Shown: piece after piece, positions 57,763-59,662 of the stretch
Layout: each line of letters begins with the position of its first letter
How positions within the stretch are numbered: position 1 is the stretch's first letter
Assembly: GCF_002854065.1 (NCBI RefSeq)
Contig: NZ_CP024147.1
DNA from: Escherichia coli
GTDB taxonomy: Bacteria > Pseudomonadota > Gammaproteobacteria > Enterobacterales > Enterobacteriaceae
Length of the DNA stretch: 64,000 nucleotides
Direction: 5' to 3' (one strand)
The notes under the pieces: model-generated
The model's database searches: none
What the model was told of the DNA's origin: nothing
What the model saw: only the letters and a program-made list of their open reading frames with translations
Made by a program: the position numbers and the translations under genes

Positions 57763-57797
57763 ATTCACCACCCTGAATTGACTCTCTTCCGGGCGCT

Positions 57798-57826
57798 ATC
57801 ATGCCATACCGCGAAAGGTTTTGCGC
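57798..57826 (-). promoter_or_regulatory. lacI promoter (-10 CATGAT at 57798-57803, -35 GCGCAA at 57821-57826)
   Basis: Matches recalled lacI promoter sequence; lies inside the last 9 codons and stop codon of the upstream GlxA-like gene. Confidence 0.8.
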
Positions 57827-58752
57827 CATTCGGCGGGGCTGACGCCGAAGTGAGATTTAAAATGCTGACGCCAGGTCACAGGTGAGAGAAAACCCACCTC
57901 AGCTGCTATCCGCTCAACGGGCAATTGACTGGATCCCAACAGTTCCTGGCTACGGCGTAAGCGTTCAGTAATAAGCCATTCGGCGATACTCGAACCGGTC
58001 GCTTTCATAAAATGGCGAGTTAATGTGCGGCGACTCATCATTACTCGCTGCGCCAGCGAGTCGAGATCATGCTGTTGCGCAATGTTTTGCCGCAGGTAAT
58101 CCAGCAGGAGATTAATGCGTTCATCATGGGTATTTTTCGGCACTGGTTGCTCAATAAACTGCGCCTGACCGCCGGTGCGATATGGCGGTACGACCATCCG
58201 TCGGGCAATATGGTTAGCATAGTCGCTGCCAAAATGTTGCCGAACAATATACAAACATCAATCCAGCGCCGCGGCAGTACCGGCAGAGGTAATAATGCCG
58301 TCATCGTCTACGTACAACGCGTTAATATCCAGATGTGTTTGTGGAAAACGTGCCTGAAATTCACGCTCGAACTCCCAGTGTGTGGCGGCACGCTTATTTT
58401 TCAGTAAACCTGCATAGCCGAGCACAAACGTGCCCAGGCAAAGCCCGACAATCTGTGCGCCGTTATCCCGTGCGGTCGTTAAGGCTTCCAGCAGTTTTTG
58501 TGGCGGTTTTTGTGTAATTGTTCCCCAGTAAGGAATTATCACAATATCCGCCTGGATGACTGCGGTATAGTCATGGGTGGCGGTTACGGAAAACCCATCG
58601 GCAGAGTCCACGTTTCCCGGCTTTTCAGCGCAGATAATTACGTGAAAGTGTTTTTTCTCCGCCATTTTTTCGCTAAATACGATAAACGGTACGGAAAGGT
58701 GAAAAGGACTAAAACCGGCAACGGCGATAATGGCAACAGTTAGCGGGCGCAT
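57799..58752 (-). pseudogene. GlxA-type regulator (DJ-1/PfpI domain + AraC HTH) with in-frame TGA at 58258-58260
   Basis: ORF 58258..58752 (DJ-1/PfpI-like) and ORF 57799..58254 (AraC HTH) are in the same frame, separated only by TGA in the conserved …AALD-[C]-CLYIVRQHFG… segment. Confidence 0.8.
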
Positions 58753-58771
58753 AACACTCTTTTTCTCCGAA

Positions 58772-59560
58772 TTAGAATGTCAACGTTTCACCATCTTCTG
58801 GTACGTTCACAAATTCGATAATTTGATTATCTCTGGCGTATTCCTTGAGCGCATCACGCGTCAGCAAACAGTGGTTTACGGCCTCCATATGTGTCGCGAC
58901 AATTTGCGCTTCTGGCAGGGTAAAATGTGTTTTGAGAATATCTTCTGCTCCCATAATTATCGCGCCATGCCCCAGAACATGCGCAAATCCGGCATTCAAC
59001 ACAACCACTTCTGGTTGGAAAGTTAGCATTGTAACCTCGACGTCGTCACGCCAGAGGGTATCGCCAGCCAGATAGAGCGTTTTCTCTGTCGGGTGCTGGA
59101 AAACAACGCCGCAGGCTGCGCCTAAACGCTTCGCCATCGCCGGGTCGGCATAGGTGCGATCGGAGCCGTGCTGCCCTGTCGTTTTATGCAGAGTAATATC
59201 GCCAAATTTAGTCTCATCGGTAAGTACGGTAAGATGTGTAAATCCTTGTTTATGCAGTGATTCAGCATCTTGCTCATTTTGCACATAAATCAGTTTATCT
59301 TTAGGGACGACGCGGGAGGCTGTTTCGTCCCAGTGATCTTCATGTAAATGAGTCACGATTAGGGCGTCAACGTTGAGTAACGTTGTTAAATCGCACGGTA
59401 ATTCTACCGTTGGATTGCGGATTTCTGCGCGTGCCGTTCCGGCAAAACCCGGATAACTTCCTTTAGGCGCGAGTAACGGGTCGATAAGAAATGTTTTGCC
59501 AGCGTATTGGATAATTTGGGTGGCATTACGAATTTGCGTAATTTTCATGATTTGCTCCAC
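58772..59560 (-). CDS. metallo-beta-lactamase-fold hydrolase
   Basis: 262 aa with MBL signature (…THLHEDHWDE…). Confidence 0.8.
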   Translation of the reverse strand: MEQIMKITQIRNATQIIQYAGKTFLIDPLLAPKGSYPGFAGTARAEIRNPTVELPCDLTTLLNVDALIVTHLHEDHWDETASRVVPKDKLIYVQNEQDAESLHKQGFTHLTVLTDETKFGDITLHKTTGQHGSDRTYADPAMAKRLGAACGVVFQHPTEKTLYLAGDTLWRDDVEVTMLTFQPEVVVLNAGFAHVLGHGAIIMGAEDILKTHFTLPEAQIVATHMEAVNHCLLTRDALKEYARDNQIIEFVNVPEDGETLTF

Positions 59561-59662
59561 ATCACAGTATTGATGTCATTAGCGTAGCGTGCAGCCCGTA
59601 CTGTGCATGTGGGCAAATGGGCGAATAACGATGAGAATGGGCCAAATTACACATTGGCGTAA

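Follow-up and report, generated by a model that had tools for sequence, protein, structure and literature searches.

A SaxA-like hydrolase gene and its probable regulator upstream of lacI in Escherichia coli: an apparently ancestral module whose 3′ end carries the lacI promoter

INTRODUCTION

O-island 19 (OI-19) of Escherichia coli O157:H7 EDL933 is a 1834-bp segment that carries two genes, z0442 and z0443 (PMC8565820). According to the review literature (including PMC8565820), z0442, since renamed ovrA, encodes an AraC-type activator of the locus of enterocyte effacement (LEE), whose binding site in the LEE1 promoter is GACATTTAATGATAATG and which favors adherence and colonization; z0443 is listed there as hypothetical, with unknown function. 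A second group of described systems is formed by the SaxA enzymes, which turn isothiocyanates into amines and thereby shield plant pathogens from toxins that arise from glucosinolates (PMC7036374, PMC12903958); activity persists in a fungal SaxA that shares just 20% identity with the Pseudomonas syringae enzyme (PMC7303113). In this study, we analyzed a 64,000-nucleotide (nt) stretch of E. coli DNA (contig NZ_CP024147.1, assembly GCF_002854065.1; hereafter, the window), in which orthologs of z0442 and z0443 lie between lacI and mhpR. Our comparisons suggest that the pair consists of a SaxA-type enzyme and its cognate regulator, that it is an ancestral module which most E. coli later lost, and that the lacI promoter derives from the tail of the regulator gene. 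As a whole, we consider this reading of the sequence probable.

RESULTS

The lacI promoter lies in the 3′ end of the regulator gene

In the window, 1900 bp (57763-59662) separate the GTG start codon of lacI (57762) from the stop codon of mhpR (59663-59665), as compared with 76 bp in K-12-type genomes, whose spacer holds neither gene. A preliminary description of the window, made from its sequence alone, had supposed a distance of about 1.9 kb and the absence of the gene pair from K-12. The alignment with K-12 that it proposed for finding the boundaries agrees on both points, and places the part missing from K-12-type sequence at 57833-59666. Along the minus strand, the order is mhpR, an intact gene for a protein of the metallo-beta-lactamase (MBL) fold (ATG at 59548), a gap of 19 nt, the regulator gene, a gap of 36 nt, and lacI (Table 1). 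With its 1834 bp, its two open reading frames (ORFs) between lacI and mhpR, and its absence from K-12, the segment is O-island 19. This identity with OI-19/OvrA had gone unrecognized in the preliminary description, as had an in-frame stop codon in the regulator gene (see below), while its account of the interval, the gene pair, and the promoter overlap stood.

That overlap was stated as the location of the lacI −10 and −35 hexamers within the last codons of the regulator gene. By translation, the regulator does end in ...EWRKTFRGMA*, and the sequences GCGCAA and CATGAT, which we take to be the −35 and −10 hexamers of lacI (Calos 1978; the lacIq mutation), are found there. The weak lacI promoter would accordingly be built from regulator codons, with its −35 hexamer in the W-R-K codons and its −10 hexamer overlapping the stop codon. 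In the stretch just before lacI (57763-57832), 70 of 70 positions match those of K-12-type, B-strain, and many other genomes. Moreover, the W-R-K codons are kept in orthologs of the regulator, of which ...SPAEWRKTFR is the conserved C-terminus, suggesting that the −35 hexamer was first held in place by selection at the protein level. In all Citrobacter loci examined, CAT(G/C)AT and AGCGC are likewise kept upstream of lacI.

We surveyed 5426 complete E. coli genomes for presence or absence of the segment. It is kept in 435 of them (8%), always on the chromosome and in single copy. The K-12-type junction, in which the deletion ends 6 bp upstream of the −35 hexamer and keeps 70 bp, was found in 4461 genomes, and a second junction (lacI-135 bp-yaiL; Nissle/FCI5-type) in 487. 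The second deletion has a different endpoint: it runs from regulator codon 285 through the whole mhp operon to yaiL and leaves 33 regulator codons. Both types of genome retain the regulator coding sequence in register (31 nt in the K-12 type, 99 nt in the Nissle type), and since each deletion stopped just upstream of the −35 hexamer, lacI kept its promoter. Most E. coli would have deleted the module at a later stage, the K-12 lacI-mhpR spacer being the scar of that loss. The suggestion in the preliminary description that the K-12 lacI promoter region is a remnant of the regulator 3′ end is thus supported by the last 10 codons and the stop codon kept in K-12, by the 33 codons kept in the other lineage, and by the gene order shared with Citrobacter (see below).

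A further claim, that lacI may receive read-through transcription, is allowed by the structure of the locus. Scanning positions 57600-59900 for terminators and promoters returned nothing on the minus strand, and RNA folding of the regulator-lacI junction indicated no unusual structure (z=−0.31). With a gap of 36 nt that holds neither terminator nor structure, transcripts of the regulator gene should run into lacI, and we judge the chances of a physiologically meaningful contribution to lacI to be about even. Just as plausible is that lacI in module-bearing strains is driven solely by its own promoter and that read-through is negligible, for example, due to low upstream transcription or Rho-dependent termination. 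The absence of intrinsic terminator and significant structure argues against this second possibility, as does the equally tight spacing of 33 nt in Citrobacter rodentium; speaking for it, the promoter hexamers are the same with and without the module, and lacI is missing from the list of RpoS-dependent genes of EDL933 (array supplement) that holds mhpR (33-fold), z0443 (9.9-fold), and z0442 (6.8-fold). The z0442 signal on that array is low (log2 5.0), so that any read-through into lacI could be minor; the array speaks slightly against it.

The enzyme is a close homolog of SaxA

Profile searches of both proteins, also proposed in the preliminary description, proved its domain assignments right. 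On the enzyme, Lactamase_B_2 covers residues 24-225 (E=1.4e-10; Pfam), indicative of an MBL fold. Among all PDB sequences, the best match of the enzyme was 6BRM, 'metal-dependent isothiocyanate hydrolase SaxA' (E=5.6e-88; residues 1-258 versus 1-259), and the two proteins are 54% identical from end to end with one gap. The other strong match, 3RPC (E=1.4e-72), is an uncharacterized 'possible metal-dependent hydrolase'; the next characterized protein, NAPE-PLD, is far weaker (E=0.0085). Residues H67, H69, D71, H72, H127, D163, and H220 (HxHxDH followed by a later His, Asp, and His) are invariant in 11 homologs including crystallized SaxA, and their role as metal ligands is assigned from the general MBL pattern, not from a structure. 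These data bear out, and sharpen, the earlier idea of a module for detoxifying electrophiles: the enzyme is a close homolog of an isothiocyanate hydrolase and would most likely hydrolyze plant isothiocyanates to amines.

An identity matrix of 80 species-representative homologs resolved three sub-clades, namely, an E. coli/Citrobacter/Enterobacter clade, the clade of crystallized SaxA, and a Pseudomonas saxCAB-type clade, which are about equidistant from one another (50-55%). The separation of the E. coli clade from the characterized ones, together with genomes that carry both, would fit an enzyme acting on a different substrate (a lactone, ester, or amide, as in a UlaG-like lactonase) and resembling SaxA in fold and family only. 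So would the label 'UlaG (beta-lactamase superfamily)' given to homologs by the Joint Genome Institute (JGI), and the best NCBIfam match, which is a generic metal-dependent hydrolase at 53.8 bits, below its cut-off of 144 bits. We nonetheless regard another substrate as unlikely in view of the 54% full-length identity to a crystallized isothiocyanate hydrolase, with the next characterized protein so distant; the retention of isothiocyanate hydrolase activity at far lower identity within the family (PMC7303113); and a regulator partner and operator motif that are the same as at the characterized SaxA locus. Enterobacter cloacae DSM 26481 carries two paralogous MBL-regulator pairs, one of the E. 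coli-type clade and one of the crystallized-SaxA clade (L029, L070), which hints at different substrates or regulation of the two.

The surroundings of the crystallized SaxA gene were also compared. Upstream of it lie genes for a major facilitator superfamily (MFS) transporter, an isochorismatase, and a LysE-type exporter, and directly downstream is the gene for a 324-aa DJ-1/AraC regulator. In tblastn searches, neither the E. coli nor the Citrobacter loci showed genes of the isochorismatase, MFS, or LysE type; such genes were found in L014 and in Pseudomonas-type loci. Hence, the E. coli locus does not hold a full sax cluster with saxB-like and transporter genes beside saxA. The exact sequence of crystallized SaxA is encoded in a Tn3-family transposon (resolvase plus DDE transposase) found in several chromosomal contexts (L014-L016).

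The regulator and a predicted operator accompany SaxA-type genes across genera

The intact O157 allele of the regulator combines DJ-1_PfpI (residues 6-171; 4.8e-12) with HTH_18 (residues 233-311; 3.4e-19) in Pfam, which is the GlxA-type architecture. OvrA aligns with the regulator beside the crystallized SaxA gene over 315 residues at 57% identity, with no gap. The enzyme gene is directly followed by an OvrA homolog on the same strand in 59 of 80 species loci, and in 10 more the homolog lies divergently upstream (69/80 adjoining); the divergent arrangement with an isochorismatase gene corresponds to the order named 'saxCAB' in the Pseudomonas literature. At the locus studied here, as at the SaxA-type loci, a DJ-1/AraC gene adjoins the enzyme gene, and the ovrA/z0442 ortholog would be the cognate regulator of the z0443 ortholog. 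Two cysteines are conserved in SaxA-linked regulators: the elbow cysteine Cys105, in a GLCLG turn (77 of 78), and Cys165 (75 of 78). The former occupies the position of the reactive cysteine of DJ-1-family proteins, and, among proteins of solved structure, the sensor domain is closest to isocyanide hydratases.

In the window, the Cys165 codon TGC is replaced by an in-frame TGA (58258-58260), so the frame of the regulator gene is not open. The window is 99.97% identical to the genome of strain CUWW06, in which the identical regulator sequence is labeled a pseudogene ('internal stop') by the Prokaryotic Genome Annotation Pipeline (PGAP). Among the 435 segment-bearing complete genomes, the stop allele occurs in one, the other 434 showing a single mismatch to a 61-bp probe centered on the site. 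That two related genomes, those of the window and CUWW06, share this allele argues against an assembly error. Relative to O157, the window regulator carries 16 nucleotide differences, of which only 2 are non-synonymous (H35R and the stop), pointing to purifying selection on the regulator until recently. Because the regulator has been knocked out by a nonsense mutation private to the lineage, the module is probably decaying in this strain; no such damage affects the enzyme gene or the lacI promoter, both of which are intact.

Alignment of the sequences that precede the enzyme gene in different genera showed a conserved block that, in the window, has the form tTGGCCCATTCTCATCG-N5-TCGCC... Its core, TG[AG]CC-N6-CATCG, yielded 55 matches on both strands of 1.4 Mb of locus DNA, as compared with about 3 expected from base counting. 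Of these matches, 52 precede the start of the MBL gene by 91-169 nt on its own strand, and they are distributed over 52 of 84 loci. Positions that the motif leaves free are also conserved, with a second TGnCC following 21 nt downstream of the first. The characterized SaxA locus has the motif in front of saxA and again in front of the isochorismatase gene. Activators of the AraC family usually have tandem half-sites that are spaced by two helical turns. OvrA would most likely drive a transcript of both enzyme and regulator genes by binding to the tandem TGRCC operator, which begins about 96 nt before the enzyme gene. Downstream of the putative operator, GCTACGCTA at 59581-59589 resembles a −10 element of the sigma-S type, and z0443 and z0442 both depend on RpoS in EDL933.

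The LEE1 site reported for OvrA is unlike this operator. A search of the window for GACATTTAATGATAATG with at most 3 mismatches gave two matches (36050 and 56164), none of them in the segment, and 3 of 100 shuffled sequences gave as many; the published motif is therefore unsupported as a local operator. Given the conserved motif upstream of SaxA-type genes, and a LEE1 site that differs from it and is missing from the segment, we predict that OvrA natively acts on the operon formed by the enzyme gene and its own gene, and that the LEE1 interaction is an addition.

Unlikely as well is that virulence control through ler and the LEE is the real task of OvrA, in which case the enzyme gene would not be its target and the pairing would be a historical leftover. 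Electrophoretic mobility shift assays, chromatin immunoprecipitation, and footprinting do place OvrA on LEE1, and deletion of ovrA lowers adherence and colonization while deletion of z0443 has no virulence effect (review literature including PMC8565820). However, many genera without a LEE conserve both the pairing and the operator motif. Nor is the segment confined to O157: it is present in other E. coli, isolated from chickens, fish, and river water, as well as in the window strain. The two roles can also coexist. A further reading, which we offer as doubtful, is that OvrA is a SaxC-type electrophile sensor whose Cys105 reacts with isothiocyanates from diet or forage, that its ancestral regulon comprised the saxA-like gene, itself, and, by read-through, lacI, and that it was co-opted for LEE control in enterohemorrhagic E. 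coli (EHEC). If this reading holds, isothiocyanates of crucifers would be a direct virulence cue for EHEC, and the enzyme would protect the pathogen from compounds that have been proposed against it.

Synteny with Citrobacter points to an ancestral segment

In C. rodentium, the genes for enzyme and regulator are followed, after 33 nt, by lacI and lacZ. The same succession of enzyme-regulator and then lacI-lacZ was found in 8 of 10 species-representative Citrobacter loci, with the full order in C. portucalensis (L007); the exceptions are L019, where the regulator is followed by lacZ without lacI, and L023, which has lacZ without regulator or lacI. Three Citrobacter loci also encode an MhpR homolog (90-92% identity), at a distance of 2-4 kb upstream of the enzyme gene. 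Identities between E. coli and Citrobacter are alike for the enzyme (76-81%), the regulator (73-80%), LacI (78-83%), and LacZ (77-80%). Since the order mhpR...enzyme-regulator-lacI-lacZ is common to Citrobacter, the segment appears to be ancestral rather than acquired, and the common ancestor that E. coli shares with Citrobacter would already have carried the two-gene detoxification module immediately before lacI.

Loci of the Citrobacter freundii complex contain an insertion of about 770 bp, with a methyltransferase gene on the opposite strand, between regulator and lacI (L007:6743-7516; L017, L018, L020, L022, L024-L026). In these loci, a decayed copy of the regulator 3′ end abuts lacI, aligning over about 75 nt with a nearly invariant −10 region. 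The lac-less E. coli strain GF4-3 from a guinea fowl (L012) retains an intact regulator gene together with mhpR and the MBL gene. There, the place of lacIZYA is taken by genes for an adenylate-forming enzyme, a CoA-transferase, and fabG, and homology ends just before the lacI start codon. Four independent rearrangements (the K-12-type and Nissle/FCI5-type deletions, the Citrobacter insertion, and the replacement in GF4-3) thus respect the stretch formed by the regulator tail.

That the segment is instead an island horizontally acquired by the O157 lineage, with the K-12 state ancestral, is very improbable: the EHEC literature names and treats it as O157-specific, no species-representative Escherichia genome is among the best 80 loci, and only the above 8% of complete E. 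coli genomes carry it, but an insertion cannot create the in-register regulator fragments of 31 and 99 nt in genomes without the genes, synteny with Citrobacter extends to the neighbors of the pair on either side (mhpR and lacI-lacZ), the pair has diverged from its Citrobacter counterparts to the same extent as lacI and lacZ, and the borders of the segment hold neither mobility genes nor repeats.

TABLE 1 Coordinates of genes, retained and missing stretches, and regulatory elements in and around the lacI-mhpR interval of the window
Feature	Position	Strand	Basis
lacI coding sequence	56680..57762	-	GTG start at 57762; ORF listing and PGAP annotation of the identical CUWW06 region
70 bp kept in K-12-type genomes	57763..57832	-	Last 10 codons of the regulator, its stop codon, and the 36-nt gap; lacI leader/promoter
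135 bp kept in Nissle/FCI5-type genomes	57763..57897	-	Second deletion with a different endpoint; PGAP label 'GlxA family transcriptional regulator, incomplete'
lacI -10 hexamer CATGAT	57799..57804	-	Overlaps the regulator stop codon (GCA TGA T); read from the sequence
Regulator gene, ortholog of ovrA (z0442), a pseudogene here	57799..58752	-	Pfam; protein comparison with O157:H7; PGAP 'internal stop'; OI-19/OvrA literature
lacI -35 hexamer GCGCAA	57821..57826	-	Inside regulator codons TGG-CGC-AAA (W-R-K); read from the sequence
Segment missing in K-12-type genomes, with 10 nt in its place	57833..59666	.	1834 bp; alignments; published size of O-island 19
In-frame TGA for TGC (Cys165)	58258..58260	-	Window sequence versus O157 protein
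MBL-fold metallo-hydrolase gene, ortholog of z0443, intact; predicted SaxA-type isothiocyanate hydrolase	58772..59548	-	Pfam; PDB match; 54% identity; metal-ligand motif
Possible -10 element TACGCT, preceded by C as in sigma-S-type promoters	59581..59586	-	Aligns with TACGAT/TATGAT in Citrobacter
Predicted operator	59605..59645	-	Two TGRCC half-sites 21 bp apart; starts 96 nt upstream of the enzyme ATG
mhpR coding sequence	59663..60496	-	ORF listing and PGAP

Other features of the window

The window and CUWW06 differ in their content of insertion sequences (IS). An IS2-like element at 33534-34864 (transposase ORFs of 136 and 301 aa, minus strand) is missing from CUWW06, and the 3′ end of the ORF at 33017-33574 appears to be truncated by it. 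In the stretch compared, CUWW06 has three IS1 copies; two of them are missing from the window (at about 15990 and about 20810), and one splits an aldo/keto reductase gene that is intact at 705-1589 of the window. Between prpE and codB, at 44509-45224, a 94-bp unit is repeated 7.6 times in tandem (93% matches); the array contains palindromes like those of repetitive extragenic palindromic (REP) elements and looks like an ordinary cluster of bacterial interspersed mosaic elements (BIMEs).

DISCUSSION

Gene content, homologies, synteny, scars, operator motif, and stop codon are directly established by our comparison, whereas the isothiocyanate substrate, the function of the operator, and joint transcription of enzyme and regulator genes are predictions; the claims on function and evolution are solid comparative inferences that still need confirmation at the bench. 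Several points weigh against an ancestral SaxA-type module with a cognate regulator. The E. coli/Citrobacter clade is sister to the characterized enzymes, and because Enterobacter cloacae holds one gene of each of two clades, substrates may differ between them. In Pseudomonas viridiflava, an isothiocyanate did not induce saxC and induced saxA only weakly. The lack of a virulence phenotype upon z0443 deletion, the dissimilarity of the LEE1 site to the operator that we predict, the absence of lacI from the RpoS-dependent list, and the low z0442 signal count in the same direction.

The K-12 scar adds to these points, its 10 nt being far more diverged than a simple deletion predicts. A clean deletion would join ...TTTACG to TCAGCCCCGCCGAATGG and leave mhpR without a stop codon; the K-12-type scars observed come in at least two haplotypes, TTGACACCAT and, in strain c1-17, TTAATGCCGC (L004:3060-3080, L011:1590-1610, L099-L101). 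The two scars and the predicted junction differ mutually at 4-6 of 10-11 positions, with flanks that are >97% identical, and a clean single deletion as the origin of the K-12 scar fails to explain the 10 diverged nucleotides. Both scar haplotypes put the new mhpR stop codon at the same position, and the divergence may have been caused by selection that favored a stop codon and A/T-rich sequence ahead of the −35 hexamer.

If an ancestral module is the right reading, 'O island' 19 is DNA that most E. coli lost and not DNA that O157 gained, and the K-12 lacI-mhpR spacer is a deletion scar. For the textbook lac system, it would mean that the 3′ end of a neighboring gene was exapted as the lacI promoter. 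z0443, annotated as 'unknown' in every O157:H7 genome, gains a testable function in isothiocyanate hydrolysis, and the virulence regulator OvrA gains a predicted native operator. Isothiocyanates are being promoted as anti-EHEC compounds, yet a 2025 review on such compounds mentions neither z0442 nor z0443.

The locus itself is already known as OI-19/OvrA, for which the primary source is reportedly Liu et al. 2020 (J Infect Dis 221:820), as cited by reviews. In the literature that could be searched, we found no account of the SaxA assignment, the common operator, the ancestral linkage to lacI, or a lacI promoter derived from the regulator gene. Two OI-19 reviews make no mention of lacI, mhpR, isothiocyanates, DJ-1, or the lactamase fold, and a literature search for links among OI-19, mhpR, the way the lacI promoter arose, and synteny in Citrobacter returned nothing, with the key SaxA papers lying outside its coverage, so that E. 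coli homologs may have been mentioned earlier.

Comparison with known systems

The best NCBIfam match of the regulator is FtrA (NF006902; E=1.1e-96), which shares the two-domain architecture; however, the score of 323.9 bits lies below the equivalog cut-off of 425, which rules out that the regulator is FtrA. With SaxA (6BRM) and the saxCAB genes of plant-associated Pectobacterium and Pseudomonas, the locus has in common the MBL fold at 54% identity, the metal motifs, the adjoining DJ-1/AraC regulator, and the operator motif. It differs from these gene sets in the lack of isochorismatase (saxB-like), MFS, and exporter genes and of a transposon context, and its enzyme falls into a separate sub-clade. 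Unlike the K-12 lacI promoter, which occupies a 76-bp spacer after mhpR, the copy in the window lies inside the coding 3′ end of a full-length gene. To OI-19 of EDL933, the window segment corresponds in its position between lacI and mhpR, its size of 1834 bp, and both ORFs, the DNA being 98.6% identical; in the window, however, the regulator gene is a pseudogene (C165*). The OI-19 literature treats the segment as an acquired island and z0443 as a gene of unknown function, whereas the comparisons presented here favor an ancestral segment with a SaxA-like enzyme.

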